From a virus, in the IMG/VR virus record IMGVR_UViG_3300009768_000008, positions 905 to 64,904 of that record: 64,000 nucleotides of DNA. One strand, written 5' to 3'. Below the pieces are notes generated by a model. That model worked only from the letters and a program-made list of their open reading frames with translations. It had not been told where the DNA came from and ran no database searches. The translations under genes were made by a program, and so were the position numbers. Positions 1,497 through 49,094 of the stretch are shown here, in pieces (the stretch's first letter is position 1; each line of letters begins with the position of its first letter).

Positions 1497-4400
1497 TTAA
1501 TATTCTGTTTCGATATAAATACGGTTAATACCAAGCTGGATCTGGGTAGCTACTGTTAAAGCAGCATTACTAGCCAGAACACCAGCTGTAAGTAAGGTTG
1601 TGTTTGTGGGAAGGTTGGTTGTAGCAGTACCAGAAGCCTCGGTACCAGTTGTGATATCCACAATTCTCCAAGTATATTGTGAACTGTTTGGAGCACAGTA
1701 GATAAATAGATCATATCCTTTTTTGGATGTGATTGTAAAGCCAGTTGAAGCTTTTGTAGCAGCTGTACCTCTTGTAAGGAACGAGATAGCTCCGTTATCA
1801 GCAGCATCCACACAGAATCCTACAGTATTGTTCAAAGCTGAAGGATCTGCAGATACTACAGTGGTAGCAGAGTGCATGCCAGCAAAGAAACGACCACCAT
1901 TTGTCCATACGTCAAAACCACAACGAGTATAGAAGAAGAAACCACCTTGACCAGCAGCACCACCCCTCATAAACATGGCATCAGTATTTCTTTGACCAAG
2001 TACCTGGTTCGTTGTAGTTACCACATTTGCGTACCTACTTCTCTTTGTGGCAGTATAAACGTTGGTAGTTGTAGGAAGGGCTGACGTAAATGTACCAGAA
2101 CCAGCACCAGCTGTACCAATCCACAAACCAGCTGTTGCACCAGTGGTTGTCCACAGTACAATGTTGTTCTGCCATAAAGCAGATTGTAGAGACATGGCCA
2201 GACCAGTATCCCCGAGGATTCTAGCTGTTGCTCTACCAGCAATATACTTAGAGTATTTTACTGTGTTACCAGATGCAGGAACAGAAGGTTCTGTACTCAG
2301 ACCTTTGATAAGCATCTGACTATTTGTAGCCAGTAATGATAAGATACCATTTGTGTCATCCCAGGTAAAGTTAGCAGATGCTCCCAGGGTACCGGCATTA
2401 TTATATTGGATCTGGGTATTTGAACCAGCCGGTGAAGCTGTTACAGTAGCCCAAGTATTATCTCCCCTCAGATATGTTGACGCTGAAGGGGTACCTGTAG
2501 CTGAAAGGTTTGAGATACCTACAATGGAGTTAGCCAGAGTTGTAGCAATAGCTGTTGTCCCAGATCCTGTTACAGCTCCGGATAATGTGATTGTTTGGTT
2601 ACCTGTGAGATAAGTGTTTGTATCCAGAGCGAACGTACCAGCAGATGTCATCTTCACAAAGGAAGTTGAGACAAAGGACAGACCTGCTAAAGAAGTCAGG
2701 TTTGTGGACAAAGGTTGAGCACCAATAGTGTTATAACTTACTGTAAGAGCACTAGCTCCATTGAAAGTACTACCAGAAGTTCCACCGGTACCACCATTGT
2801 TGAATGTAATAGCATTTGTTGTTGTACCACCACTACCAGATGGCGCGGCCCATGTTCCATCTGCACGAAGGAAGTTAGAAGTTCCTCCACCAGAAGCAGG
2901 AACCAGACCTTTCAGAGTACTTGTAAAGACATCCAGAAGTGTGGTAGCTTGTGTACCAGTCAATGTTTCCACGTTACCAGTTCCAGCTGTCACCCTACCA
3001 TGGAATGTACCAGTAGCTACCTGGGCCAACATGGCATTGGTTACCTTATTAGCACCAATGGTTGTTGTGATTGCTGTTGTACCAGTACCGGAAATATCTC
3101 CAGAGAGTGTGATAGATTGGTTGGCTGTCAGATAAGTAGAACTATCCAGGCTACCATCACCTTTTACAAACTGACCAGACGTACCAGAAATATAGCTTAT
3201 AACACCGGCTGTGGATTTTACAATACCAGTTCCTGACAAAGGAGCCTGATAGCTAAGAGCAGGAATATCAGTAGCAACCAGTAACCTAAATCCTGGAGTA
3301 CCTGCAGAACCATTAGGAGCCGCATATACAAAGTTTGCAGTTTGAGATCCAAATGTGTTGTTTAGATCTGTACCGGTAACAGCTGTGTTACCCGTTACGC
3401 GACCCTTTGTATCCAGGGTGATCTTTACAAAGTTGGCACCAGTAGATTGAACTACAGTAGCTAAGGTAGTTGTAATAGCGGTTGACCCTGTACCAGAAAC
3501 GTCACCAGAAAGAGTGATCGACTGGTTTGCAGTTAGATAGGTTGAGGTATCAAATACCCAGGTATTGGTACCTGTACCAGTGTACTTCAGTAAGCCAGCA
3601 CTGGCTCCGAGAGCCGGGAGAGCTACCCCTCTAAGACCTGTAACTGTTATTGCGGGTGTCAGAGATGTAGCACCAGATCCACCAGAAGAAGATACATCTC
3701 CTGTAGGACTGAATGAGATTGTCTGGTTAGCTGTAAGATAAGTACTCGTGTCTAGAGTCCAGGTATTCAGAGCTGTTTTCTTAGCAAAACCTGTAGTTCC
3801 AGCCAGTGCTGCTATGGCACTAAGATCACCATCAAGCGGTTGATATGTTGTGGCAGCAGTAGCTGAAGTCAGATAAGGACTCAAAGCTGAACTGGTAATA
3901 TATCCAGAGTCATTCGTAAATGAAGATACGTTTGTCGGGGCCCCTGTTAGCTTACTATAGGCCAGGGAAGTAATCCAGGTTGGATCAGCGTACGAACCAC
4001 TTGTCAGAACATCACCAACACTCCAGGAACGGTTGAGAGATAAATCCAGGGTAGTACCGTTAATAGTCAAAGTTCTGGTTGTCTGTACATATCCGGTAAG
4101 GGCTGATGAGGTTATATAACCAGCATCATTTGTAAAACTGGATACGTTTGTGGGTGCTCCAGTCAGTTTACCATAAGCTAATGAAGTGATCCATGCAGGG
4201 TTTGCATAAGATCCAGAAGTATAAACTCCATTTGTTACAGTTCCGGCATTTCCACTAATACTGATGCTCCAGGTACCAGAAGCACCTGTACCGGTCAGAG
4301 AAGGAATATCAGTACCAATAGCCAGACCAAGATTTGTTCTAGCTGCCAGAGCTGTACTTGCACCAGTACCACCATTTACAATACCAAGTTCTCCAGATAC

Positions 4401-7079: not shown

Positions 7080-7699
7080 TAGGATAAGTATGCTTTACCG
7101 GCAACAGCCTGGTTAAAATAGATTTTTAGTGTGTTGTTATCAACCACTTCTATGGTACCTACTATATCGTTTCCATCCTGATCTTCTGTTCTGACGTTTG
7201 GCACCATATTCATACCGTGGGTAATCACCCAAACAGTAGCAGGTGTGCTCTGTGTAAATACATAAGAGCTGTTATGATTGATGGTAACAGCCGGGTTAAG
7301 ATTGATCCTTGTGATACAACCACCACTGTTTACCTCAATAATATTCTGATTACCGTTTCCATATGCAAAACCAACTCCCAAAGTTTGGGGACCTGTTGGT
7401 GAACCCGTTTTGTAATAGCCCGGGCCCCAGGCATCTTTTGTAGAATCATATTGTACAAGAGAGTCGTTCCTATAGTTAACTGGTAGGAACGTAGTATAGT
7501 TCATATTAGTCTGACACAGTGCATCCTCGTCTTCGTTACTCTGCCAGTCTACCAGCTCTTTTCTCATAGAGATCAGATCCGGATCAGCAAAAGATGTCGT
7601 ACAAGAACTGATACCATAACGCATCTGCCGAGCCAGTTTGAACACTGAGTCAGCATATTCCTTATAGTACTTATCTTTTTTAGCGAGGAGGGTTCTCAT
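7079..7699 (-). CDS. hypothetical structural protein (206 aa)
   Basis: ORF track; its stop overlaps the fibre start (shared base), giving a coupled operon. Confidence 0.45.
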   Translation of the reverse strand: MRTLLAKKDKYYKEYADSVFKLARQMRYGISSCTTSFADPDLISMRKELVDWQSNEDEDALCQTNMNYTTFLPVNYRNDSLVQYDSTKDAWGPGYYKTGSPTGPQTLGVGFAYGNGNQNIIEVNSGGCITRINLNPAVTINHNSSYVFTQSTPATVWVITHGMNMVPNVRTEDQDGNDIVGTIEVVDNNTLKIYFNQAVAGKAYLS

Positions 7700-26117: not shown

Positions 26118-26245
26118 TAAACAAAACTCAGCAGTAGTAGTTGTCTTTAGAGTGGACTATTTCTCACTGAGGTAAGTAGATTACTAAGGGGTAATACTTA
26201 GTAAAATTAATCAGTGTCAGCTTATATACAACTGATTCTTATCAG

Positions 26246-26317
26246 TTTCCTCCCCTGGGTACGATCCAGGAACTGCAGGGCCAAAACCTGCCGTGATACC
26301 AGTTTCACCAAAAGGAA
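26246..26317 (-). tRNA. tRNA-Gln (anticodon UUG)
   Basis: Hand-folded cloverleaf. Acceptor UUCCUUU/GGAGGAA; D GUGA-AACUGGUA-UCAC; anticodon stem GCAGG/CCUGC with loop UUUUGGC; T CCUGG-AUCGUAC-CCAGG. Confidence 0.6.
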
Positions 26318-26323
26318 ATAGTG

Positions 26324-26395
26324 GGTGTAAGGACGGTACCGACCCGTCTTCCCCAGGTCCACAACCTGGTGCATCACCTTAATGCTTCAAACACC
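26324..26395 (-). tRNA. tRNA-His (anticodon GUG) with G-1:C73
   Basis: D GCAU/AUGC; anticodon CCAGG-UUGUGGA-CCUGG; T GACGG-GUCGGUA-CCGUC; extra 5' G pairs with C73; the acceptor stem has two U.U mismatches. Confidence 0.5.
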
Positions 26396-26400
26396 ATAAG

Positions 26401-26472
26401 AGCCTTCTACCGGAACCGACCCGGTAAGTCCTGTTTACAAGACAGGCAGTTTTCCAGTTAGCTTAAGAAGGC
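26401..26472 (-). tRNA. tRNA-Thr (anticodon UGU)
   Basis: acceptor GCCUUCU/AGAAGGC perfect; anticodon CCUGU-CUUGUAA-ACAGG; T ACCGG-GUCGGUU-CCGGU. Confidence 0.55.
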
Positions 26473-26477
26473 CTGTG

Positions 26478-26550
26478 TGGTACAGAGTGGTTACGATCCA
26501 CTTCCCCCGGTTTTTCAGACCGGTGCTTCTACCAAGTTAGCTTCTGCACC
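26478..26550 (-). tRNA. tRNA-Phe (anticodon GAA)
   Basis: acceptor GGUGCAG/CUGUACC; anticodon CCGGU-CUGAAAA-ACCGG; T AGUGG-AUCGUAA-CCACU. Confidence 0.6.
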
Positions 26551-26625
26551 AAGTAGGACTTTGTCAAAGCCGGCCACTCCTGCACAAAGAGGAGACCAGC
26601 TTGATCAGGTGTCCTGAAACCTTTG

Positions 26626-26698
26626 AGGTGGGTGGGAAACTCGAAGCCCCGTATGACTGTTTTGCGGACAGTTGCCTTACCATCTTGGCGAACCCACC
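26626..26698 (-). tRNA. tRNA-Cys (anticodon GCA)
   Basis: acceptor GGUGGGU/ACCCACC perfect; anticodon ACUGU-CCGCAAA-ACAGU (C33 unusual); T-loop UUCGAGU. Confidence 0.5.
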
Positions 26699-26704
26699 AT
26701 GTTG

Positions 26705-26776
26705 TCTAGCTGATCTGGATCGAACAGACGTAATCTTGCTCCCAAAGCAAGTGCCTTACCGCTAGGCTACAGCTAG
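26705..26776 (-). tRNA. tRNA-Pro (anticodon UGG)
   Basis: acceptor CUAGCUG/CAGCUAG; D GCCU-AGCGGUA-AGGC; anticodon CUUGC-UUUGGGA-GCAAG; T GUCUG-UUCGAUC-CAGAU. Confidence 0.65.
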
Positions 26777-26830
26777 AAAAAGAAAACCCCCAAACCGTTT
26801 TACCAGTCTGGGGGTTAGTATTTTGATTTT
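26774..26830. terminator. bidirectional terminator-like hairpin AACCCCC-(17 nt)-GGGGGTT flanked by U tracts on both strands
   Basis: read directly; abuts the 5' end of tRNA-Pro. Confidence 0.5.
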
Positions 26831-26944
26831 GTACTTCTTAACTCGTTGCTATGATCACTGTACATACACCAACACAACTACCCCCGCAGACCGGACAAGG
26901 TTGCGTAAACTGGGTAAACTGTGTATGGGTAGTAATCTTCTTCA

Positions 26945-26986
26945 TCTACAATACAAAGATACTACTTTTTGTAGAACTACCAAAAT
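26945..26986 (-). promoter_or_regulatory. Bacteroidetes-type sigma-A promoter (minus strand): -33 TTTG at 26983-26986 and -7 TATCTTTG at 26952-26959, 19-nt spacer containing GTTCTAC
   Basis: matches the TTTG / TAnnTTTG consensus with canonical spacing; the same extended motif recurs at six or more sites. Confidence 0.5.
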
Positions 26987-26993
26987 CTTTTTG

Positions 26994-27066
26994 CACGGGC
27001 CCAGGGAAACGATCCCTGTCCATCCGAGGTTTTGGAGACCTGGTGCATACCATTATGCTGGCCCAT
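26994..27066 (-). tRNA. tRNA-Trp (anticodon CCA), reduced D-loop
   Basis: acceptor AUGGGCC/GGCCCGU; anticodon CAGGU-CUCCAAA-ACCUC (4 bp); T CAGGG-AUCGUUU-CCCUG; D-loop only 4 nt. Confidence 0.45.
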
Positions 27067-27071
27067 GTATG

Positions 27072-27155
27072 TGGGAAGTGAGTGAGTCGAACACCCCGAG
27101 TCCGTAGACAGCTGGTTTACAATCAGCCCCGCTACCACTTACGGTATAACTTCCC
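27072..27155 (-). tRNA. tRNA-Tyr (anticodon GUA), long variable arm
   Basis: acceptor GGGAAGU/ACUUCCC perfect; anticodon GCUGA-UUGUAAA-CCAGC; variable hairpin; T GGGUG-UUCGACU-CACUC. Confidence 0.55.
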
Positions 27156-27235
27156 CTATTTCGCATATCCAGTCAGTAGTCTTTCCGTCAAAAGCTATCA
27201 ACCAGAGTATGCCGTTCATATTAACGATGTACATG

Positions 27236-27321
27236 CAGAGAGCAGAGTAGTCGAAACCCACCCCGGTTAAGGAGCCCACTGTTTAGCAAACAGGTCTGAC
27301 CACCTAGTCAGTTTACTCTCT
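27236..27321 (-). tRNA. tRNA-Ser (anticodon GCU), long variable arm
   Basis: acceptor AGAGAGU/GCUCUCU; 3-bp D-stem; anticodon CCUGU-UUGCUAA-ACAGU; T-loop UUCGACU. Confidence 0.5.
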
Positions 27322-27326
27322 AGATG

Positions 27327-27418
27327 CGGAAGGCAGAGGAACCGACCCCCATGCCCGTGTAAGGGGCAGCCTAGTTTTCAAGACTAGTCGCCACTCCAAT
27401 GTAGCTGCATTACCTTCC
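27327..27418 (-). tRNA. tRNA-Ser (anticodon UGA), long variable arm
   Basis: acceptor GGAAGGU/GCCUUCC; anticodon CUAGU-CUUGAAA-ACUAG; variable hairpin UGCCC-CUUACAC-GGGCA; atypical T-arm. Confidence 0.5.
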
Positions 27419-27424
27419 ATGTAG

Positions 27425-27510
27425 TACCGGTGGAGGGGGATGATCCCACACGATCCTTTCGGATCACAAGATTTTAAGTCTTGCGTGTCTGCCTATTTCA
27501 CCACACCGGC
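27425..27510 (-). tRNA. tRNA-Leu (anticodon UAA), long variable arm
   Basis: acceptor GCCGGUG/CACCGGU; anticodon CAAGA-CUUAAAA-UCUUG; variable hairpin GAUCC-GAAA-GGAUC. Confidence 0.55.
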
Positions 27511-27591
27511 AGTTGTCTGGACTCTCACCATAGCAGTCAGGGATTTCAGGTCCCCAGGTGTGCATTCAATTCGTCCCACCTTCTGACATCG

Positions 27592-27674
27592 TACCTCTGA
27601 CAGGCCTCGAACCTGCACCCGTTTCCGGACTAGATCCTAAGTCTAGCGTGTCTCCCAAGTTTCACCACAGAGGT
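27592..27674 (-). tRNA. tRNA-Leu (anticodon UAG), long variable arm
   Basis: acceptor ACCUCUG/CAGAGGU; anticodon CUAGA-CUUAGGA-UCUAG; T GCAGG-UUCGAGG-CCUGU. Confidence 0.55.
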
Positions 27675-27685
27675 ATAAAAACCAA

Positions 27686-27715
27686 AATCCCGACCAGGAA
27701 AACCTAATCGGGATT
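27686..27715. terminator. hairpin AATCCCGA-(14 nt)-TCGGGATT followed by a U tract (plus strand); also U-flanked on the minus strand
   Basis: read directly. Confidence 0.4.
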
Positions 27716-27941
27716 GGAAACTTTTTCAGTAACTACATACCTCACCCGATTGGTTTATGCAACCAATACAGACTGAGTGAGGATAGAGTAAACTGCTTCA
27801 TAAAAATTTGGTGGATGGTCACCCCACTTGTTTTAATCTAAACAAGAAATCATCGGTCGGTTACGTTAACTTCTCAGCTTGAACGCCTGTCGTGTGACCT
27901 TTCAGCTTTCACGCCTGTTAAGAGGCTTTACCGACCATCAC

Positions 27942-27990
27942 AATACAAATATACAACTCTTTTGGAGTTCTACAAAATATTTTTGTGGAG
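27942..27990 (-). promoter_or_regulatory. Bacteroidetes-type promoter (minus): -33 TTTG inside ATTTTGTAGAAC, 19-nt spacer, -7 TATATTTG. Also a near-palindrome TCTACAAAAtatTTTTGTGGAG.
   Basis: read on the minus strand: ctccacaaaaatatTTTGtagaactccaaaagagttgTATATTTGtattg. Confidence 0.55.
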
Positions 27991-28061
27991 ACTCTGGAAC
28001 TTGAATCCAGCTGATATCCTGCTTGCAAGGCAGGTGTCCACTCCTGGCAGACCCAGTCCCC
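27986..28061 (-). tRNA. tRNA-Ala (anticodon UGC)
   Basis: acceptor GGGGACU/AGUCUCC (G.U); anticodon CCUGC-CUUGCAA-GCAGG; T CUGGA-UUCAAGU-UCCAG; 7-nt variable region is unusual. Confidence 0.45.
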
Positions 28062-28067
28062 ATGCTG

Positions 28068-28139
28068 TACTCTCGGGTGGTAACGATCCACCTACCTTCT
28101 CCGTATCAGGGAGCTACTCTACCATTGAGCTACGAGAGT
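28068..28139 (-). tRNA. tRNA-Ile (anticodon GAU)
   Basis: acceptor ACUCUCG/CGAGAGU perfect; D GCUC-AAUGGUA-GAGU; loop CUGAUAC; T GGUGG-AUCGUUA-CCACC. Confidence 0.6.
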
Positions 28140-28144
28140 ATAAG

Positions 28145-28217
28145 TTGATCCGGGTGGGTACGATCCACCGACCTTGACGTTATGAGCGTCCTGCTACTAC
28201 CACTGAGCTACGGATCA
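28145..28217 (-). tRNA. tRNA-Met (anticodon CAU), copy 1
   Basis: acceptor UGAUCCG/CGGAUCA; D-arm GUAGCUCAGUGGUAG; loop CUCAUAA; T GGUGG-AUCGUAC-CCACC. Confidence 0.55.
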
Positions 28218-28222
28218 GTATG

Positions 28223-28296
28223 CGGTCCGTACCGGGATCAAACCGGTCATCTCTGGCGTGACAAGCCAGCGTCTTCATCGTGCAGACCCACGGACC
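28223..28296 (-). tRNA. tRNA-Asp (anticodon GUC)
   Basis: acceptor GGUCCGU/ACGGACC perfect; anticodon CUGGC-UUGUCAC-GCCAG perfect; T ACCGG-UUUGAUC-CCGGU. Confidence 0.6.
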
Positions 28297-28302
28297 AAAT
28301 AG

Positions 28303-28376
28303 TACCCCCACCGGAGATCGAATCCGGTTCTTCACCGTGAAAGGGTGGCGTCCTGTACCTTCTAGACGATAGGGGC
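28303..28376 (-). tRNA. tRNA-Glu (anticodon UUC)
   Basis: acceptor GCCCCUA/UGGGGGU; D CGUC/GACG; loop CUUUCAC; T CCGGA-UUCGAUC-UCCGG (canonical). Confidence 0.55.
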
Positions 28377-28456
28377 AAATTGGAGGCTTAGGACTCCATC
28401 ATCCTCCTTGAGATCCCGGCGTCCTTCTACTTTTTATAGTACGGATCTCTTTTACG

Positions 28457-28528
28457 AGCAGCATCTCGGGGTCGATCCGAGTTCTCCGGTTTGGAAGACC
28501 GGCACATCAGCCCTAATGCTTATGCTGC
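28457..28528 (-). tRNA. tRNA-Gly (anticodon UCC)
   Basis: acceptor GCAGCAU/AUGCUGC perfect; anticodon CCGGU-CUUCCAA-ACCGG perfect; T CUCGG-AUCGACC-CCGAG. Confidence 0.6.
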
Positions 28529-28639
28529 ATGAAAGAACAGAGCTCCAGGGGAATCTCACCCGTCTGTCCGGAACAGACCTCACTGCCTTTTACTATGTAC
28601 GGTATTTACTCGTACACAACAGCTACCTGAAGATGATCT

Positions 28640-28710
28640 TGGTTGCGGGGCCGGGATTTGAACCCGGGAAACACGGCTTATGAGACCGGTCGGCCACCTG
28701 GCTCCCCACA
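28640..28710 (-). tRNA. tRNA-Met/Ile2 (anticodon CAU), copy 2, CCA encoded, reduced D-arm
   Basis: T CCGGG-UUCAAAU-CCCGG; acceptor UGUGGGG/CCCCGCA plus ACCA; loop CUCAUAA; the 8-48 region is about 6 nt short. Confidence 0.45.
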
Positions 28711-28719
28711 ATAAAACTG

Positions 28720-28793
28720 CGGACTCTCCGGGGAACGATCCTGGAACCTTCACCTTAACAGGGTGCCGCTCTACCAGTTGAGCTAAGAGTCCG
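28720..28793 (-). tRNA. tRNA-Asn (anticodon GUU)
   Basis: acceptor GGACUCU/AGAGUCC perfect; D GCUC-AACUGGUA-GAGC; loop CUGUUAA; T-loop AUCGUUC. Confidence 0.55.
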
Positions 28794-28865
28794 TATACTT
28801 AGAAGGATTCCAACCTTCACTTTCAGTTTAGAAGACTGACGTGCTAAGCATTACACCATAAGTAC
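28794..28865 (-). tRNA. tRNA-Arg (anticodon UCU)
   Basis: acceptor GUACUUA/UAAGUAU; anticodon UCAGU-CUUCUAA-ACUGA perfect; T GAAGG-UUGGAAU-CCUUC. Confidence 0.55.
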
Positions 28866-28870
28866 ATATC

Positions 28871-28944
28871 TGGAAGACCCGGAGGTAGTCGAAACCCCAT
28901 CATCACGTTCGTAGCGTGATATCCTTCCATTGAACGACGGGTCC
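28871..28944 (-). tRNA. tRNA-Arg (anticodon ACG), CCA encoded
   Basis: acceptor GGACCCG/CGGGUCU; D GUUC-AAUGGAA-GGAU; anticodon UCACG-CUACGAA-CGUGA; T GGGGU-UUCGACU-ACCUC; 3' UCCA. Confidence 0.55.
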
Positions 28945-28996
28945 TTGTTAAGACCGTCTTCGGTAATATGTACTGTAGTGTGTCATGTCTTCTGTC

Positions 28997-29073
28997 TGGT
29001 AGCTCCTATCCGGGTCGAACGGATGCATTCTCGGTATGTAACACCGAAGCTCTACCACCTGAGCTAAGGAGCT
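28997..29073 (-). tRNA. tRNA-Val (anticodon UAC), CCA encoded
   Basis: acceptor AGCUCCU/AGGAGCU perfect; D GCUC-AGGUGGUA-GAGC; anticodon UCGGU-GUUACAU-ACCGA; T AUCCG-UUCGACC-CGGAU; 3' ACCA. Confidence 0.6.
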
Positions 29074-29136
29074 ATTTGAAGCTCATTATTGAGCTTGAAT
29101 GAGCTGAATATTGAGCTTAATCGGCTCATATATCTT

Positions 29137-29208
29137 GTTCCCCCGTCCGGTAACGATCCGGACCCCACGGATTAAAAGTCCGTTGCCTACACCTGTTTGC
29201 TACGAGGG
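29137..29208 (-). tRNA. tRNA-Lys (anticodon UUU)
   Basis: acceptor UCCCUCG/CGGGGGA (G.U); anticodon ACGGA-CUUUUAA-UCCGU perfect; T UCCGG-AUCGUUA-CCGGA; weak D-stem. Confidence 0.5.
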
Positions 29209-29244
29209 AAAATAAAAAACCCCGGTAGCTGGTGCTCCGGGGTT
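29208..29244 (-). terminator. intrinsic terminator (minus): AACCCCGG-(11 nt)-CCGGGGTT plus TTTTTTATTTT, abutting the 5' end of the tRNA array
   Basis: read directly. Confidence 0.6.
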
Positions 29245-29396: not shown

Positions 29397-29440
29397 TACA
29401 ATACAAATATACGTTAGTTCTACAACATGACCAAATTTAT
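29397..29440 (-). promoter_or_regulatory. Bacteroidetes-type promoter (minus): -33 TTTG, a 20-nt spacer containing GTAGAAC, -7 TATATTTG
   Basis: minus strand reads aaTTTGgtcatgttgtagaactaacgTATATTTGtattg. Confidence 0.5.
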
Positions 29441-30523: not shown

Positions 30524-30759
30524 AACTAAGCTGTTTTAAAAGTGAGGGGGCTTTTACACCCCCTTGGGCTAAGGCAGGTCTGTCAAGTTTCATGAGTTCT
30601 CTACAAATATAAGAAACCAGACTCCAGTTCTCCAAATATTTCTACAAGTTTCCTTGAGCTCATTTTTGAGCCCTAGAACATAGTAATAAGGAATACATGG
30701 TATGTTATAGAGCTCAGATTTGAGCTCAAGGAAAGTTGGACCCAGTTCTCCAAGATACC

Positions 30760-31168: not shown

Positions 31169-31458
31169 GCTCTCCCTGTTCACGCAGTACAAAGAGAGCC
31201 GTGGCTTTACGTTACGGTTCTCTTCTACATCTCAAGTCCACCATTCTTTTCACCATTTAACGTTACTGTTCTATGAAACACGTACGAACACTCCGCTTTC
31301 AGTGTTACCAGCTCTTTGTATCCTGGTACACTAAGATCAGCCAAAGGTTTCACGACCTCAGACTCTGCAACATCAAGACACGTTGGCAGGACCATTGTGT
31401 TGTTGTAGTGGTAACTTACTGAGTTTTCCTCTGTAAGATGCTGATTACGAACTGATTG

Positions 31459-31492
31459 TGGGTGTATGACTGAGTGATAGTTATACACCCAC
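31459..31492. other. perfect 10-bp hairpin GTGGGTGTAT-(14 nt)-ATACACCCAC in an ORF-poor tract
   Basis: read directly. Confidence 0.5.
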
Positions 31493-32185
31493 TTCTTTCC
31501 TCATACTCTTCATCCACAGTCAACCTGAATACGGTCGGGCGTGGATCAAATAGCTATAGGCACGGGTGTTCCCTGCCGTATGCAAAACACAACAAACCCA
31601 AGTGGCACAGGGGGTAACTCTCTGCAGGGAGATATAGTAGATGTCTGTAACAAGCTCTATGGTCACACTAGGCATATTGGTAATTATTCTTGGTAAGCCG
31701 GTATATGCCACCGGCTCCAAAAAAACGCTAGAGACCAACGCCGGCACAGTGGACTGGACTACTGGAGGGGATGTGAAGAACCAGATATTAGCTGACTCCC
31801 TGACGTGCTGGTGTTGTTATCTCTACTACACAACTACTGTCTCTTATGTATCAATGCGTCACAACCTGGTTCCCAAGGCTAGGCAGTTGTAATAGGCTCA
31901 AGACTTTTAAGTCTGTAAGTAGTGGAAACAGTTAGGTTCAAATCCTACATATTACAACTGAACGCAGAGGGATATGATACCTGATTTCTCCACCGTTCTA
32001 AAACCTACGCTATATGCCACAGGATCCTTCATTACCGTTTACTATCATTTCAATGTATCCGTCTGTTGAACACCCTGGTAAGGTGGCTGTCCTTGTACAG
32101 TACAAAGATGGTATACAGAAAGTCTTATACCTGACCGACAAGCCTGTCTATGGTATTCAGGTAGAACAATAAAACCGACCCGGAT

Positions 32186-38629: not shown

Positions 38630-38718
38630 GTTACCAGTCCAAACTTTTTTTGTTTACACTTTGTAGAACTAAGAAAAACGTCTACATTTGTTCTACATCT
38701 TTAAAGTTTACATGTTAC

Positions 38719-40200: not shown

Positions 40201-40422
40201 ATGCGTAAACTAATCTTAGAGATCCTGGTAGCACTGGTAACACTTTGTGTGACTGTTAATGCGGTGTACTACCTGGGAGATATCCTCTCCGGAAAAATCA
40301 ACTTCCTCATCATGTTTGTGGTACTGTTTGCTCTCGGAGTTTGTGTCATAGCATCAGTTTACGTTCTGATGAGAGTGGTTAAAACCTATTCTCAAACTGT
40401 AAAAAAACAAAGTAAGTCATGA
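40201..40422 (+). CDS. small membrane protein (73 aa) coupled to an SPFH gene; NfeD-like partner?
   Basis: two TM helices; 4-nt overlap with the downstream gene. Confidence 0.35.
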   Translation: MRKLILEILVALVTLCVTVNAVYYLGDILSGKINFLIMFVVLFALGVCVIASVYVLMRVVKTYSQTVKKQSKS

Positions 40423-41405
40423 TTTTCCTCATCACCCTCATCTTGTCACTCGGCCTTTTAGGTCTGATGTTCGGGATCTTCAATTTCAACAACTACGTTA
40501 AAGTAGTCAAAAAAGAAGTAAACTACGGTAGCAGAACCCAAACTATTGAAGAAGAACAAGTCAACGTTGCTCAGATCATTAAGACAGCAGCCGTTGTTCT
40601 CTTCTGTATCATCGCATCTGCTGTAAATCCTCTTTCCCTGCAGCGTATTGACGCCGGTAATGTGGGTCTTAAGATCGACAAAGTCGGTAACATGAAAGGT
40701 ATCCCTACCGCTATCCCGGTAAAGGGTTGGGTATTCTATAATGACTGGACTACAGACATCGTAGAGTATTCTATCCGCCAGGGTCACGTACAGTATGAAG
40801 CATTCGATGTAACTACCAAAGGTGGTTTCAACATCAAGGTAAACCCGAGCTTCAACTTTGCCCTGAAACCTGAGAAAGCCGCGGACGTCTATATCAACCT
40901 GCTGAAAGGTGGAAGCTTCTCCAGTCTTACTGATAACTGGATCAAGACAGCTACCAACATCGCCATGAATAATGCTACGAATAAGTATACCATTGACAGC
41001 ATCTTCAACAACCGGGAACACTATCAACAGGATATCATCAAAGAGCTCAACAAAGAAATGAGTGCTTACTTTACTGTGTCCCAGATCAATCCTGGTGTTG
41101 TCCCGCCTCCGGAACTGGCTAACGTAATCAAGCAGAAAACTGAAACTATTCAGAAAGCACAACAGGCTGAGCTTGACCGTATTACAGCTGAGAACGAAGC
41201 TCTTACAAAGATCGCTACGGCTCGTGGTGACTCAGCTCAGGCTGTGATCCAGGCTGCAGGTAGGGCCGAAGCTATCAAGCGTGAACAACAGACTCTTACA
41301 CCCTTATACATCGAGTATATCAAAACTCAGAAGTGGAACGGTGATGTACCCAGTACTGTGTTAGGTAACTCCAACGGGTTCATGATCAACCTCAATAACA
41401 AGTAA
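40419..41405 (+). CDS. SPFH/band-7 (stomatin/HflK-like) domain protein (328 aa)
   Basis: N-terminal TM, central alpha/beta region, C-terminal Ala/Glu-rich coiled coil (AQQAELDRITAENEA...AAGRAEAIKREQ). Confidence 0.45.
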   Translation: MIFLITLILSLGLLGLMFGIFNFNNYVKVVKKEVNYGSRTQTIEEEQVNVAQIIKTAAVVLFCIIASAVNPLSLQRIDAGNVGLKIDKVGNMKGIPTAIPVKGWVFYNDWTTDIVEYSIRQGHVQYEAFDVTTKGGFNIKVNPSFNFALKPEKAADVYINLLKGGSFSSLTDNWIKTATNIAMNNATNKYTIDSIFNNREHYQQDIIKELNKEMSAYFTVSQINPGVVPPPELANVIKQKTETIQKAQQAELDRITAENEALTKIATARGDSAQAVIQAAGRAEAIKREQQTLTPLYIEYIKTQKWNGDVPSTVLGNSNGFMINLNNK

Positions 41406-43787: not shown

Positions 43788-44096
43788 ATGAAAAAACAAA
43801 TCATTGTTACGATCCCGGATAATCCGGATTATAGAGTTGTAGCCGACTTTGGTACTTTCAACAATGTGATTGAAGACGTCTGGTTCTTTGTACTTCAAAA
43901 ACGAGAGTATCGGAAAAAGTGGGGGTTCTTTGGTAAACCTCAACCACGATGGATCGAAGTAGATTCCAGATGGACGTCTGACGATTTTACAACGTCTTCA
44001 AAAGTATACAAATATGCTTTTGAACTCTATGATTTACTCGTAGGGAAACGTCTCAACAGAGCCCGTAACGCACAGGAGATAGAACGTTCACTATAA
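43788..44096 (+). CDS. hypothetical protein (102 aa from an internal Met)
   Basis: ORF 43701..44096 trimmed to avoid overlap. Confidence 0.35.
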   Translation: MKKQIIVTIPDNPDYRVVADFGTFNNVIEDVWFFVLQKREYRKKWGFFGKPQPRWIEVDSRWTSDDFTTSSKVYKYAFELYDLLVGKRLNRARNAQEIERSL

Positions 44097-44335
44097 ACTT
44101 CTTAATACCTGCTGAAAGCAAAACAACTGAAACCAAGTATCCGCCGGTAGTAGCGGTTTAAACAGTGAGTACACTTACCTTGGTTAATTCAGAACCCCTA
44201 CCAAGAGGGAGTTGTTTGTGGACAGATACTCTGATAAGTAAAGCCTCTTGGACTCAAACTCCAACGTAACGTAAGGATAAAGTATTCACACACTTGGAGT
44301 GACAGGTATTAACTTCTAAAACCCTTAACAAGCAT

Positions 44336-44791
44336 ATGGCTACTAAAAAGAAAGCTGCTAAAAAGAAAGCAGCGTACAAACCACTGAACCCTACGTTCTT
44401 TAAACAGGTTACAGTATCGGAGCTTGACTGGTCAAAAGTTCCTGTTGGTACAAAAGTGACAGCAAAAGTAGACCGAACAATCATTACTGGAAGGATCTAC
44501 AAAGAAGATAAAGAGATTTTGATCTGTCACAATAACAGAAACAAAGACTGCTATACAGAAGGTTTATTAGGATATAAATACTCTGTTAACATTGGAACCG
44601 GTTCTCCTGTTGATCTTAAACACAACGAAGTTCAGATCCTGGAACTTGAACGTGATCCTAACTGGGTAGCACCAGTTCAGATCTTTATTGACGGGGATGC
44701 TATCATCTTCGGAAAAGGTAAGATCAGAGTGGGATGTACCACCGTTAAAAACGAAGTTGTCAGAGAGATAGCAAAGAATCTCGTTGACTAA
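44336..44791 (+). CDS. hypothetical protein with a Lys/Ala-rich N-terminus (151 aa)
   Basis: ORF track. Confidence 0.45.
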   Translation: MATKKKAAKKKAAYKPLNPTFFKQVTVSELDWSKVPVGTKVTAKVDRTIITGRIYKEDKEILICHNNRNKDCYTEGLLGYKYSVNIGTGSPVDLKHNEVQILELERDPNWVAPVQIFIDGDAIIFGKGKIRVGCTTVKNEVVREIAKNLVD

Positions 44792-45485
44792 TAAGCTTGT
44801 AAAGTATGTAGTCTTCCAGTGACATGAGGACGGTAAGATGTATCGGTTAATAACCAGAGTCTTACGAGTAAGTCACCTTTACATGATCAGGCTAAACATT
44901 GAAGCCTTTGTACGCTGCTCGACGACATTTGTAACGTGAGTCAGACTGCATAAAGATAACAACCCTGAATGAACAGGGTGTAGATAACCTTAAAGCAATA
45001 AGAGGTGAGAAAAGTACCTTGAGGGTCTAAGAACGATGGACACTTTTATAGTGCACCAGTTTCCCGCCAGAGTAAGGACGGAGGGACTAAGACTATATCT
45101 TTCAAAATCTATGGAGTAATCCTGTACGTGTTGTTCCCTTGAGAAAGGAAGGGTTACGTGGATGAGCGTGGTTAAGAGCCTACCCCCAACAACACGAATG
45201 AGTTTTCAGCAAGTAGTTATGAGGAGGAGATTAAGATTCTCTATCAGGTACAGAAGCCAAAGCGGAGTGCTCTGTTAGGTAAATGGGATGCTTGAGTAAG
45301 CCGTTATATTAAAGCATCGGTAATAACTACACGACCCTACTCTTATAGAAGACTGAGGCTTGATAAGAGCCCATCCTCACTGAAATATGACCAGACCTCT
45401 TTTACATGACCAAGTTTGTAGAAGAAGGGTACTGTAAGGAGTCATTACTATAAGACAAGAGGGTGCTAGTGATTTACAAGGAACA

Positions 45486-46151
45486 ATGACGCATTACGGC
45501 CTGGGTCTTTACCCGGGCCTCTTTTTCTTAATCCAAAAAACCAGAAACATGAGTCAAAAGGAAGACTTGAGTATAGCCGGATCAGGTAGTCCAATCTCAC
45601 TTAAAAAGTTCTTACTAAAACATCCTGATGCCAAACCTCTGACTGTCTTGGTTGACGGTACAGGGTTAGGTATAGCTAAGGATGATTCAGGTACAATATA
45701 CATCACTCGTGAAGATTGTGCCCAACAAGCCCTGTACTACTGTAAAGAAGTATTTGATGGAGTAAGAGTTCCTGCTTACCTATTCAGGTACCTGAACTAC
45801 ATGATGTTTGATGACGAGCGTTGGAATGACGATAAACAAGTAGCCCAGGCTTTCATTGACGGTACAGTAAACGATCAGTCAGAAGAGTACCTCCGGGTCA
45901 AAAACTTCTTGACCTATGCAGAACACAATCCAGAAGGATTACAGGTCATAGGTCTTATTCAGCTTATTGGAGGTAGTCTGAACATGGCTCGTAAACGTAA
46001 CTCAGGTATCCGGATCTATCTTGAACACCCTGAGACAGCCTTGCATCCAAAAAGACAATCACGTTTTATAAGCTTGTTTTACAAGCTTCAAAAAGATTAT
46101 GGTTATGAGGAGGTTCAACCAGCGCATGACGTGGATGGTGACCAAGACTAG
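45486..46151 (+). CDS. hypothetical protein (221 aa)
   Basis: ORF track. Confidence 0.4.
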   Translation: MTHYGLGLYPGLFFLIQKTRNMSQKEDLSIAGSGSPISLKKFLLKHPDAKPLTVLVDGTGLGIAKDDSGTIYITREDCAQQALYYCKEVFDGVRVPAYLFRYLNYMMFDDERWNDDKQVAQAFIDGTVNDQSEEYLRVKNFLTYAEHNPEGLQVIGLIQLIGGSLNMARKRNSGIRIYLEHPETALHPKRQSRFISLFYKLQKDYGYEEVQPAHDVDGDQD

Positions 46152-46195
46152 TAACCATAGTCTTTTTTAACAAATCTAAAACCCCTTTACATACA

Positions 46196-46531
46196 ATGAA
46201 AAAGATCATCTTTTCAATCTTAACAGCAGTAGTACTGCTGAGTGCATGTGAAACATCTGAAGGTATCAAAGCTGGTACCTTACAGAAAGTAAGTCATAAG
46301 ACCTTCCCCTGCTCCTACTATGTAGCGGAGTTTGCATTTGAAGGTGGCCGGGCATCTGGTTCTAACGACTCAAAAGCTTACGCGAACACCCAGGAAGTGG
46401 AAATCACTAAAGAAGCTTTTGACAGCCTCCAGAACCTGGTAGGAAGCCGTGTACGGTTCTCCTACAAAGACGAAGGTTTCAAGGCGTGTGCTCCGAATAA
46501 AAAACTGGAGACACTGGCTGTCATTAAATGA
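46196..46531 (+). CDS. lipoprotein (111 aa; lipobox LLSAC)
   Basis: MKKIIFSILTAVVLLSAC. Confidence 0.45.
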   Translation: MKKIIFSILTAVVLLSACETSEGIKAGTLQKVSHKTFPCSYYVAEFAFEGGRASGSNDSKAYANTQEVEITKEAFDSLQNLVGSRVRFSYKDEGFKACAPNKKLETLAVIK

Positions 46532-46884
46532 TCAAACCGGTTGGGTAGCACAAACACAGAAACTGTCCAAATGTTGTACAACTCTGTATGAACATCTGAG
46601 CCAAGTAGTGCGTCGGTGTCCAAAGCCGAAGATGATGGGGTAGGTCCATCCCTGGCCACACGTTCCGAAACATGACAACGGATAGTACCATCCTGTATGA
46701 TGAGAAGCAGAGTGATGTCTGTATGGATAAGTGACAACTTCTTTGAAAGTTGTGGGCCGACAGCCTGAGATCTGTGATCTTAAAAGTCTAGTCCTAACTC
46801 ACCTAGAAAAAACAGCAGGGAGGGGATAACCCTCTGTGAGGACAGCCACGGTACTTGCAAGCTGGATAAATTAGAGTACCACAC

Positions 46885-47005
46885 GGGCTTATTAGTTCAG
46901 TGGCAGAACACCGGGTCCGATGAGGCGGCTTTTATTAAGGTTATTGCAACCCCAAAAGAAAACCGAAACCCCGGGAGGTCACCAGTTCAAATCTGGTATA
47001 AGCCC
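46885..47005 (+). tRNA. tRNA-like gene with a roughly 50-nt insertion in the anticodon loop. Acceptor and D arm (GGGCUUAU-UA-GUUC..GAAC) and T arm plus acceptor (ACCAG-UUCAAAU-CUGGU-AUAAGCC-C) are intact.
   Basis: acceptor 7/7 pairs plus G-1:C73; anticodon-stem halves CCGGG ... CCCGG separated by 53 nt. Confidence 0.4.
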
Positions 47006-47039
47006 CTATAAACAAACACTTTAAATTAGTCTAAAGCTT

Positions 47040-47279
47040 ATGAAAGTCTTATTCGGAAAGATGCCCAGTAAGTTGATCGTACGTTTGAAGATAGCACTGG
47101 GTATCTTTACTATCTGTACGATCTTTGGGATTATAGGGTACTTTGTACCTTCTTCAAAGCCTCCCTTACTTAGAACATTTGCTGCGTTCATCCTACCACT
47201 TGCTTGTCTAACAGCAGTTCTGATCTTGTTTAAGATCATGGAATTTATCCTGTGGTGTTTTGATTGTAAGCCCAGGTAA
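47040..47279 (+). CDS. small membrane protein (79 aa)
   Basis: hydrophobic. Confidence 0.3.
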   Translation: MKVLFGKMPSKLIVRLKIALGIFTICTIFGIIGYFVPSSKPPLLRTFAAFILPLACLTAVLILFKIMEFILWCFDCKPR

Positions 47280-48363
47280 AAATATAGTACAGAGGAGGTA
47301 GGCTTGGAAGTAGCCATAAGGTAGAACCTTACTCTTGGGTTGAGGCTGGCTGAGATCAGATATACATCTAAGAGTCCTTTAAAGAGTTGCAAGTAGGACC
47401 CGTAACTGATTATGTGACGACTAAAAGTGGTAAAACTACAGGAGATATAGTCCTGATGAAAAGAAGTAAGCGTCAATAGGACTGAGTAGCTGGATTATTA
47501 TACACTCCTTAGAGCATTTGGTGTAACAACACACTCTGTACTTTTTTCTTAGCTCCGGGGATCACACCATCCGTCAATCTGGTTGTGTTATGTTTAAGCA
47601 AGCTTAAAAGAGCAGCTCCATTGGTCTGTTTACTGTCTGGTGAGCTCAGACTTTAAAAAGTAGAATGGGTCAACTGGAAAAGCTGCAGAAATATTTGTAG
47701 AACTCCTAAAAAAGTTCTATATTTGTTCTACACTGGGCCCGTCTGGTTTAGACAGCAGAGTGAGTGGTAACTACACATGTGGACAAAGTAAGAACGTCCT
47801 AAAATACTTACAAAACAATAAACGCTATGACTAAGTCTGAGCGTGTAGCAGAAGGTGAAGCTATCCTGGCTTCTATCTTCGTTGATGAGGCTGTAGCAGC
47901 CTGATCCTACGGGGGATCTATCCCTGGCAACAGAAAATAGAACTGAAGTCTTATATGAGCATACAGAACTAAACGGGACATATGCCGTAAAGTAATCCGT
48001 GTATAAGACGTAGAGTGGCTCCCTTAATAGTCTAGGCTGACCTAGAGCATTCTAACTGAAGCATGGTATACAGGGGGTGAAGCCGTGCAACCCAGCTATG
48101 GGTTACCAGAATGATACAGTTACAGATGAGCGTAGTATGTGAAAACATTCAAATAAGTATCTGTTATAAAAAGTATAGTGACTGAATGTTTGGTAGTAAT
48201 AGCATGTTTTCCTGGTTATGTCAAAACTAGGTGGTGGAGTAGGCGGTCTTGATTGGACGCCCCCAAACTACGGTGCAGATGAAGTGACGCAGTCTTTTAG
48301 ACTTGATCCAAAGTAATCAGTACTAAACATGTAATACGTTGTAGTTATTGACTTCTTTGTTGG

Positions 48364-48392
48364 ACACGAGTTCGATTCTCGTCGGGTCCACT
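48364..48392 (+). other. tRNA 3'-half-like element: T arm ACGAG-UUCGAUU-CUCGU plus acceptor CGGGUCC-A, with no 5' half
   Basis: read directly; canonical T-loop. Confidence 0.4.
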
Positions 48393-48785
48393 CTCTCAAA
48401 GCTAAGCAATCGTTAGACCCCCGGTGGTTTCTACTACTGGGGTTTTCTTTTTAAACAAGTTACTCAACATATTTTCTTAGAGATGTTCTCTTTGAAAATC
48501 TGGATACGTCTTTATCCAAGTCCCGTGGGGAAGGTCATTGAGACCATAGACTGTCACAAGAGGAAAAAACTGGAAGATTCTTACGGCAGTTAAGATATCC
48601 TGACTTCAATGTCGAAGTAACACTTGTCGTAGACGGGTTTAAAAAAGAGTAGTACAATTCTAGATATGTACGTTGATCCTGAGTATTTATACAATATACC
48701 CGCTGATACAGAAGTATCAGAGACGTAAACTCCTGTCTGACGACCAGTACGTTAAACTGGTCTTTTTACATCCTTAACCAAGCAT

Positions 48786-49094
48786 ATGGAAGAATACCTG
48801 ATTATCAACAAGAAGAATGATGAAATAGAGTACATCATCTCTGTGATTACAGACAGTATCGGAACCAGTTACATGATGCGTAGGTCTAAAGCTAGTTCCT
48901 GGTCAGAAGACGTACGTGATAAACGTGTTCTGACAATTACAGACACCGGTGACAACATGATCGTAGATCCTAAGCTCGGTAAGAAGCTTGAGTACGACGT
49001 ATATGCAGAACTTTTAATCCTAATGAACTTCATCAAGAGTAAAGACAAAAACCTCACTGAAGAATACATGGTTGCAAACTATTCAAAGCCATAA
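48786..49094 (+). CDS. hypothetical protein (102 aa)
   Basis: ORF track. Confidence 0.4.
   Translation: MEEYLIINKKNDEIEYIISVITDSIGTSYMMRRSKASSWSEDVRDKRVLTITDTGDNMIVDPKLGKKLEYDVYAELLILMNFIKSKDKNLTEEYMVANYSKP

Follow-up and report, generated by a model that had tools for sequence, protein, structure and literature searches.

Why would a phage genome carry long tracts in which no reading frame stays open? We addressed this question in IMG/VR virus record IMGVR_UViG_3300009768_000008, of which 64,000 nucleotides (nt; positions 905 to 64,904 of the record) were analysed. This stretch, hereafter the window, is a portion of a 135.6-kb contig of the Joint Genome Institute (JGI). The region under study, 44097-48785, comprises 4,689 bases, and a separate tract (31169-32185) was also examined. 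A preliminary description of the locus had offered as explanations large structured non-coding RNAs (ncRNAs), self-splicing introns with degenerate open reading frames (ORFs), or a regulatory or origin region. Our analysis makes it very probable that the tracts form an RNA-gene island of the phage, with every gene on the plus strand, and are not decayed or recoded coding DNA. The first of the three explanations proved correct: the region contains a transfer-messenger RNA (tmRNA) recognised by Rfam, a tRNA-shaped RNA, a large structured RNA and a smaller candidate structured RNA, the last two with the compensatory base changes that the description had proposed to look for in alignments with relatives.

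Coding status of the region

Neither the ORF list nor a six-frame stop-to-stop scan contains a long ORF in 44097-44335, 44792-45548, 46532-47039 or 47280-48785 (tracts 1 to 4). The second tract is longer than first described (44792-45485), because the 221-amino-acid (aa) ORF that follows it probably starts at 45549, giving a 200-aa gene; this start was chosen because the alignments with homologues begin at residue 22. Between 2.4% and 10% of the codons are stops in each of the six frames, as in the non-coding frames of a real gene, and the JGI gene calls cover 1,698 of the 4,689 bases (36%), against about 80% and 94% of the flanks. The tracts and their dense stops are thus real. The preliminary limit of about 60 codons for any open frame holds in that there is no long ORF, but was slightly too strict, as the longest frames between stops run to 71-107 codons on the minus strand, and to 98 codons in the separate tract 31169-32185.

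Could the tracts be coding after all, hidden by stop reassignment, frameshifts, pseudogenisation or assembly error? In favour of this explanation, phages that infect Bacteroidota are known to recode stop codons, and GenBank originally annotated tiny ORFs over the homologous region of the cultured phage phi14:2. However, no single reassignment of TGA, TAG or TAA opens a frame across any of the tracts, and there is no suppressor among the 17-21 tRNAs. The tract sequence is 100% identical in two JGI metagenome assemblies (samples 3300009710 and 3300009716), and assembly error is unlikely because the second assembly carries all of the tracts at this identity. The small phi14:2 ORFs were removed by RefSeq in 2020, and conservation is of the kind expected of RNA, with compensatory pairs, invariant loops and hairpins of variable length. 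At the positions of the structured RNAs the relatives carry homologous non-coding RNAs and not the intact protein genes that, according to the preliminary description, would have pointed to sequencing errors or frameshifts. We consider hidden coding to be extremely improbable.

Megablast and blastn searches of 44000-49000 against 50,697 phage records gave no match. Scans of IMG/VR for the phage of the window recovered neither its 221-aa protein nor the 3' end of its tmRNA. Most contigs with homologues of the 221-aa protein (L017, L018 and L020, where L numbers designate the related viral loci or contigs used for comparison) are compactly coding and could not serve as comparators because the tracts are missing there. 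A protein with a Por_Secre_tail domain and promoters of Bacteroidota type point to a host among the Bacteroidota.

The large structured RNA and its relatives

Tract 2 contains a large structured RNA, which was recognised by its conserved blocks and covarying helices and is made up as follows.

44888-45470, plus strand: large structured RNA of about 580 nt (581 nt)
44889-44907, plus strand: 5' hairpin with the loop AAACAUUGA
next in order, plus strand: CAUAAAGAU, then the hairpin CCCUG-AAUGAA-CAGGG
45113-45122, plus strand: GNRA hairpin GGAGUAAUCC
45127-45135 with 45188-45196, plus strand: long-range helix
45137-45148, plus strand: hairpin with a UUGAGA loop, then AAUGAG..UCAGC
45333-45346, plus strand: GACCCUACUCUUAU, which pairs with AUAAGACAAGAGGGU; the end of the RNA, GGGUGCUA, is at 45468
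45498-45529, plus strand: intrinsic terminator of the large RNA, a GC-rich stem of 9 base pairs (bp) with a T run behind it; it falls within the spurious 5' extension of the 221-aa ORF

This RNA belongs to a class for which the window copy and the copy at 2911-3365 of phi14:2 (L085 and L086 in our set) were taken as types. The class is characterised, in this order, by the loop (U)AAACAUUGA, CAUAAAGAUACUA, a hairpin CCUG-AAUUGA-CAGG, GGAGUAAUCC, the UUGAGA-loop hairpin, AAUGAG..UCUCAGC, GACCCUAC and GGGUGCUAA, and the window copy holds all of these blocks with their order unchanged. The 5' part of the consensus opens with the hairpin that carries the (U)AAACAUUGA loop and continues with a helix UGUGAAU/AUUCACA around a variable insert, CAUAAAGAUACUA and a hairpin AUCCUG-AAUUGA-CAGGAU. 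The middle consists of a variable region, a tetraloop hairpin GGA-GUAA-UCC and a 9-bp long-range helix that encloses the UUGAGA-loop hairpin. The 3' part comprises AAUGAG..UCUCAGC, an optional hairpin, GACCCUAC-UCUUAU paired with AUAAGA-(C)AAG-AGGGU, and GCUAA.

Covariation was assessed by pair counts on MAFFT alignments, with 500 shuffles and with partners slid by 1-3 columns as controls. In the tested helices 87-93% of the cells are paired, against 35-60% with slid partners. Both sides have changed in 32 of the 50 tested pairs (8 of 9 in the long-range helix), every tested helix covaries, and the observed covariation score was reached in none of the 500 shuffles for any tested segment. The G-U pairs fit the plus strand. 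In L057, L060, L068, L069 and L075 the UUGAGA loop is kept while its stem has been wholly replaced. The class has at least seven covarying helices together with near-invariant loops and junctions. We also considered GGCUAAACAUUGA as a general promoter and rejected it: the motif occurs once per locus, only at the 5' end of the RNA, and its flanks covary as a stem.

Tract 2 shares ordered blocks with L003, where a long tRNA-like gene follows, and with L023, a 310-kb jumbo-phage contig in which the blocks lie inside an array of 29 tRNAs. IMG/VR was scanned with patterns from three different blocks, which gave 32, 30 and 104 partly overlapping stretches; these were then filtered for the other blocks. 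In all, 86 distinct full-length copies were found in viral contigs, from crAss-like phages to 300-kb jumbo phages. They measure 237-856 nt (median 363), and the window copy is among the largest. ARAGORN calls a tRNA or tmRNA within 2 kb of 34 of the 86 copies, on the same strand in all 34 cases, and 16 copies have a tmRNA within 3 kb; several start 8-15 nt past the 3' end of a tRNA or directly precede a tRNA-like gene. A scan of a bacterial genome collection gave seven matches, four of them by chance. The three true copies are confined to small contigs of metagenome-assembled genomes, and for this reason the class appears, on sequence evidence, to be specific to phages. We found no recurrent Pfam family among 146 neighbouring ORFs that would suggest a cognate protein partner. 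The only family seen more than twice there (4 of the 146 ORFs) is that of the Band_7/SPFH proteins, which lie a few kilobases from the RNA island in the window (40419-41405), in L022 (4901-5848) and in other loci.

A consensus-like member of the class matched the cultured Cellulophaga phage phi14:2, a crAss-like phage of the Crassvirales, at 3110-3359. The full large RNA of this phage extends over about 2911-3365, and a tmRNA lies at 4031-4500. As g004 is at 2194-2904 and g006 at 4602-4901, and g005 would be the ORF at 3590-3910, the large RNA falls in the g004-g005 junction and the tmRNA in the g005-g006 junction. A published RNA-seq study of this phage by Drobysheva et al. reports that both regions give rise to rightward transcripts that are more abundant than most mRNAs and are early and persistent (10.1101/2020.03.07.982082). 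On the strength of this sequence match, the large RNA of the window is homologous to a transcript that has already been seen in phi14:2. In the original GenBank record of phi14:2, the large RNA and the tmRNA are covered by seven ORFs of 33-42 aa (3106-3431 and 3912-4519); RefSeq dropped these small ORFs in June 2020, and no RNA feature replaces them in the feature table.

Might the large RNA act in cis, as a leader or riboswitch-like regulator of the 200-aa gene, or might the region be an origin or another DNA-level element? The RNA lies directly upstream of this gene, the only neighbour for which homologues were sought and found, and the 48-nt block at 47541-47588, whose conservation involves no clear compensatory changes, could act at the level of DNA. 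Against this, an intrinsic terminator separates the large RNA from the 200-aa gene. What follows the large RNA in other phages is an unrelated gene, a tRNA or a tmRNA, and most homologues of the 200-aa gene occur without this RNA. In addition, the phi14:2 transcript is abundant and outlasts early mRNAs. GC skew has no anomaly at 44-49 kb, and there is no evidence of a replication origin in the window, although no dedicated search for iterons, repeats or repeat arrays was made. A cis-acting or DNA-level role is thus very unlikely.

Another possibility is that the large RNA is a highly divergent RNase P RNA, GOLLD, ROOL, 6S RNA or signal recognition particle (SRP) RNA that the models miss. Its strongly conserved unpaired nucleotides recall ribozymes and the RNAs of ribonucleoproteins, and its place beside tRNA and tmRNA genes of the same strand would be appropriate for an RNA that processes tRNAs and matches that of GOLLD and ROOL (PMC12286853). 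At E<=10, however, no Rfam 15 family matches the window copy or a minimal copy of 239 nt, if one hit resembling a terminator and another that is random are set aside. The GOLLD model is effective on the present data, with 250 bits in L032, and the universal motifs of RNase P (P4 and CR-I to CR-V) are not visible on reading the consensus, nor is there a match to an RNase P model of Rfam. We regard a divergent member of these families as unlikely. As far as we searched, the class is absent from Rfam 15, and we found no earlier definition of it as a family, no fold and no name in the literature; fragments may figure in a catalogue of 10,006 viral candidate structured RNAs.

Group I or II self-splicing introns that interrupt genes, possibly with degenerate endonuclease ORFs, are suggested by homing endonuclease genes inside some large-RNA members (L025 and L041, and in antisense L059, L067 and L072), an arrangement typical of group I introns, and by a true group I intron in the T loop of the L084 tmRNA. 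With a limit of E<=1 for the window, and of E<=10 for tract 2 and a compact class member, the Rfam intron models nevertheless gave no match, while the group I model (RF00028) is effective on these phages, with 85.5 bits in L084. The flanks of the large RNA are unrelated complete genes, tRNAs or a tmRNA in different phages and not the halves of one gene, the RNA closes at a terminator, the T loop of the window tmRNA is intact, and the 53-nt insert of the tRNA-shaped RNA described below is far smaller than known self-splicing introns. The second proposal of the preliminary description is accordingly not borne out, and an intron origin is highly improbable. Of the models named for the Rfam check in that description, the tmRNA model gave a match and the group I intron model did not.

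Several members carry insertions. A sense-strand ORF for an HNH_3 homing endonuclease of 161 aa lies in a variable hairpin of L025 (6825-7310), with an equivalent in L041, and the RNA resumes downstream of it. In L059, L067 and L072 antisense inserts, which resemble endonuclease genes on reading their sequence, lie in the core downstream of GGAGUAAUCCUAG / GGAGTAATCCTAG; past each of them a short-form copy opens again with GGCUAAACAUUGA. The large-RNA gene thus has two distinct sites of invasion by homing endonuclease genes. L060 has a long and a short copy in tandem. L032 carries within 6.5 kb a GOLLD RNA (250 bits), about 20 tRNAs and a large-RNA copy (3961-4386, minus strand) that is 1.7 kb from GOLLD. 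Since this locus has both, GOLLD and the large RNA coexist and do not replace each other.

The tmRNA, the tRNA-shaped RNA and smaller elements

The preliminary description had noticed two tRNA-like elements in the region. Both are real: one is a tRNA-shaped gene at 46886-47005 and the other the tRNA-like domain of a tmRNA. ARAGORN in default mode finds neither of these RNAs. The tmRNA and its predicted signals are as follows.

47735-48393, plus strand: tmRNA of 659 nt, with an Rfam RF00023 match, a G3:U70 pair, a T arm and a tag frame
47694-47725, plus strand: predicted Bacteroidota-type promoter TTTGTAGAACT-N-TATATTTG, found by motif search and ending 9 nt before the tmRNA 5' end
38660-38690, plus strand: promoter match from the same motif search
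26954-26984, 27946-27976, 29404-29435 and 30604-30636, minus strand: promoter matches from the same motif search
48419-48452, plus strand: strong intrinsic terminator of the tmRNA

This tmRNA is a new, unusually large member of a known family. It scores 60.7 bits with RF00023 (gathering score 47, E=2.9e-21), and the match covers model positions 1-374. The acceptor stem is formed by GGGCCCG and CGGGUCC and includes the G3:U70 pair that specifies alanine identity, and the T arm (ACGAG-UUCGAUU-CUCGU) is intact. The tag frame (47824-47904) runs from a GCU resume codon at 47824 to a UGA at 47902-47904 and encodes 26 residues, AMTKSERVAEGEAILASIFVDEAVAA, which close with hydrophobic residues, AA and the stop, as is expected of a tmRNA. 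Homologous tmRNAs encode the tags AKTRSQRVAEGEAILASIFQTEAVAA (L037 and L083) and GKTKSDRVAEGEAILASLFSAPVAIAA (L084). Since three diverged phages encode matching tags, the tag is conserved at the protein level. The tags, of 26-27 residues, are unusually long and have the common core RVAEGEAILAS(I/L)F before an AVAA or AIAA end (window 47824-47904, L037 1849-1929, L084 about 6667-6750). Such a core suggests a role beyond that of a simple degron.

Compared by nhmmer mapping with the 401-403-nt gene of L037, the window tmRNA has about 260 extra nt at one site (47940-48200), in the form of pseudoknot or hairpin modules. In the Rfam alignment the tmRNA helices are placed, and stretches of 44 and 101 model positions are occupied by insertions of 189 nt and 227 nt, respectively. 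Positions 48014-48081 of the expansion form a pseudoknot-like module, GGCUCCCU..hairpins..ACAGGGGGUGAA, which recurs in L025 (6325-6393) and L076 (5987-6046), in both cases in RNA islands without a called tmRNA; the L025 module stops 8 nt short of the large RNA. In L084 (IMG/VR record IMGVR_UViG_3300016665_000106) the tmRNA homologue (6573-7300) is split in its T loop by a group I intron (7071-7287, 85.5 bits with Rfam), and this interruption is the reason why ARAGORN is silent on it.

The promoter motif, TTTG(T/G)AGAAC..TA(t/c)(a/c)TTTG, fits the -33/-7 consensus of Bacteroidota and was matched 6 times in the window, where 1.9 matches would be expected. Besides the match at the tmRNA, three are located within or next to the minus-strand tRNA array and have almost the same sequence. 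The motif predicts that a promoter of this type drives both the tRNA array and the tmRNA. The array itself (26245-29209) has 17 tRNAs by ARAGORN, to which Rfam adds at least three (26626-26698, 28303-28376 and 28643-28710).

Tract 3 contains a tRNA-shaped RNA and, directly upstream of it, a candidate structured RNA. Long tRNA-like genes similar to the former are present in L003, L022, L023, L037, L041 and L084.

46886-47005, plus strand: tRNA-shaped RNA of 120 nt; Rfam tRNA model (RF00005), 46.2 bits, with a 53-nt insertion
46676-46882, plus strand: candidate second structured RNA of about 205 nt, with covariation between two sequences
L084 522-649 and 246-370, L003 3760-3866 and 4867-4973, L041 9085-9215, L023 8132-8277: long tRNA-Leu-like genes of 100-146 nt

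The Rfam alignment and the predicted fold indicate that the acceptor, D and T arms of the tRNA-shaped RNA are intact. Where the anticodon loop normally has 7 nt, 53 nt stand in for six of its positions, and the RNA is for this reason unable to decode. An intron-containing tRNA was considered at this position and rejected: the intron mode of ARAGORN gives a 28-nt 'intron' at 31/32 with an implausible variable arm, and across the long tRNA-like genes it returns inconsistent, non-canonical positions. In these genes one to three extra hairpins (30-60 nt), one of them capped by GAAA, replace the anticodon arm. Several have a D arm of tRNA-Leu type, and most keep the A73 discriminator. Leucyl-tRNA synthetase does not read the anticodon, so that by analogy the tRNA-Leu-like members might still be chargeable. 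Most likely the long tRNA-like RNAs are non-decoding tRNA mimics, which we infer to serve as handles for processing by ribonucleases (RNases) P and Z or as stable scaffolds.

Between 46660-46877 of the window and 704-925 of L084, the closest relative available here, identity is 67% over 220 nt. RNAalifold on these two sequences predicts 34 pairs, 9 of which have changed on both sides with pairing kept, and this points to a second structured RNA at about 46676-46882. Rfam gave no match to it, and a strict pattern scan for more relatives returned L084 alone. In L084 it comes after two tRNA-like genes of 125-128 nt and stops at a T run.

The remaining sequence contains the following segments, of which those given without a strand have no ORF, no Rfam match and no homologue by nhmmer in 80 related loci.

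44097-44335, no strand assigned: tract 1, intergenic, 239 nt
47280-47550, no strand assigned: 270-nt segment that closes at about 47520-47550 with a weak hairpin resembling a terminator and a T run
47541-47588, plus strand: near-invariant 48-nt element GCUCCGGGGAUCACACCAUCCGUCAAUCUGGUUGUG, 94% identical to L084 4217-4262 and 86% to L022 8195-8229
48453-48785, no strand assigned: 333-nt segment with a third plus-strand terminator at 48742-48772
31871-31989, plus strand: long conserved hairpin element of about 120 nt, CCCAAG..GGCAGUUGUAAUAGG...CCUAnAUUACAACUGAnCGCAGAGGG, shared with L040 1774-1898 (blastn; nhmmer E=0.002)

Tract 1 is possibly a leader or promoter of the 151-aa gene. The terminator-like hairpin at about 47520-47550, read from the sequence, matches one in L084 in position, and in both phages the 48-nt element adjoins the terminator-like T run on its 3' side. 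The element is nearly invariant in three phages (the window, L084 and L022) whose tmRNAs share only 65-76% identity. From the tmRNA it is separated by 125 nt in L022, by about 150 nt in the window and by 2.3 kb in L084; it is possibly a protein-binding site or a promoter. The segment 48453-48785 could be a small RNA or a leader, and its terminator hints at another small transcript. The hairpin GGCAGUUGUAAUAGG...CCUAnAUUACAACUG in the separate tract, flanked by CCCAAG and CGCAGAGGG, has in the window a loop that holds the T-arm-like GGUUCAAAUCC; the element at 31871-31989 may be another family of small phage RNAs.

Proposed function and comparison with known systems

If the tracts are an island of RNA genes, as we think very probable, host RNA polymerase would transcribe them from promoters of the Bacteroidota sigma-A-like type into stable, abundant RNAs. 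The ends of these RNAs would be set by RNase P and RNase Z cuts at the tRNA-like modules, or by terminators, as in tRNA operons. Host alanyl-tRNA synthetase would charge the tmRNA, which together with host SmpB would free stalled ribosomes and add the tag of 26-27 residues ending in AVAA or AIAA. The large RNA would act in trans, alone or with a conserved host factor, and its partner would most plausibly be the translation or tRNA machinery, a niche that in other phages belongs to GOLLD and ROOL (PMC12286853). A more specific proposal, which we put forward tentatively and hold to be possible but doubtful, is that the 580-nt RNA represents a new functional class, a ribozyme or a machine made solely of RNA, whose targets at takeover would be host tRNA, tmRNA or ribosomes, with the tRNA-shaped RNAs, for example aminoacylated tRNA-Leu-like mimics, perhaps as its partners or substrates. 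As part of this proposal, the repeated targeting of the large RNA by homing endonucleases may reflect its importance.

Some observations weigh against an island of functional RNA genes. A canonical tRNA or tmRNA is missing within 2 kb of 52 of the 86 large-RNA copies, and the link of this RNA to translation derives from genomic neighbourhood. The expression evidence comes from phi14:2 and not from the phage of the window, the tmRNA might be functionally impaired by its extra 260 nt, and the second structured RNA was compared between two sequences. About 1.3 kb (44097-44335, 47280-47693 apart from the 48-nt element, 48453-48785 and most of 31169-32185) is without comparative support. Finally, the z-scores of minimum free energy for the tracts are unremarkable (-0.8 to +0.3) and, not being significant, were dropped as evidence.

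Large structured RNAs of bacteria and phages with no known function are rare (OLE, GOLLD, ROOL and raiA), and their architectures have repeatedly been unexpected. The present class is now delimited by a consensus with covarying helices and by 86 full-length variants, from a minimal form of 237 nt to 856 nt. Cellulophaga baltica and phi14:2 form a cultured system in which the large RNA is already known to be among the most abundant phage transcripts. With a defined consensus, many variants and a cultured host-phage system, the function of the large RNA can be tested directly. For genome annotation, ARAGORN misses phage tmRNAs that are expanded, as in the window, or interrupted by an intron, as in L084. 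Where crAss-like and other Bacteroidota phages have long stretches without ORFs, these should be taken for islands of RNA genes and not for annotation gaps or tiny hypothetical proteins.

Phage tmRNAs are known, for example from cluster C mycobacteriophages and from huge phages. The tmRNA of the window shares with them the tRNA-like domain and its G3:U70 pair, the resume codon and the way in which the tag closes, with hydrophobic residues before AA and a stop. It differs in its length, 659 nt against about 400 nt in the closest homologue (L037), and in a tag core that is conserved across phages.

RNAs that contain or mimic tRNA-like modules include MALAT1 mascRNA, the small stable RNAs of the T4 tRNA cluster and bacterial YrlA. 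The tRNA-shaped RNA of the window likewise has acceptor, D and T arms and no decoding function. It stands directly after a structured RNA, as do its counterparts in L003, L026 and L037, an arrangement that suits the formation of a 3' end by RNase P. Unlike YrlA, it ends at the acceptor stem. It also differs from the known mimics in that extra hairpins of 30-60 nt replace the anticodon arm and that several of its relatives are tRNA-Leu-like with A73.

The long non-coding RNAs of phi14:2 follow the same order as those of the window, a large RNA, one or more small genes and a tmRNA (10.1101/2020.03.07.982082). The copies differ in length, 581 nt in the window against about 455 nt in phi14:2. In its accessible part, that study deals with transcription, states that the function is unknown, and contains no family, no structure and no naming of the tmRNA (10.1101/2020.03.07.982082).

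GOLLD (RF02032) and ROOL (RF03087) are large multi-helix RNAs of phages and prophages that often lie beside tRNA islands and have no cognate protein and no known function (PMC12286853). The class described here is similarly phage-borne, occurs near tRNA islands and lacks a recurrent protein neighbour, a likeness of placement and not of family membership. It has no detectable similarity to them in sequence or structure, with no covariance-model match at E<=10. Its members are also smaller (237-856 nt, median 363), occur in Bacteroidota-type and crAss-like phages, and are targeted by homing endonucleases.

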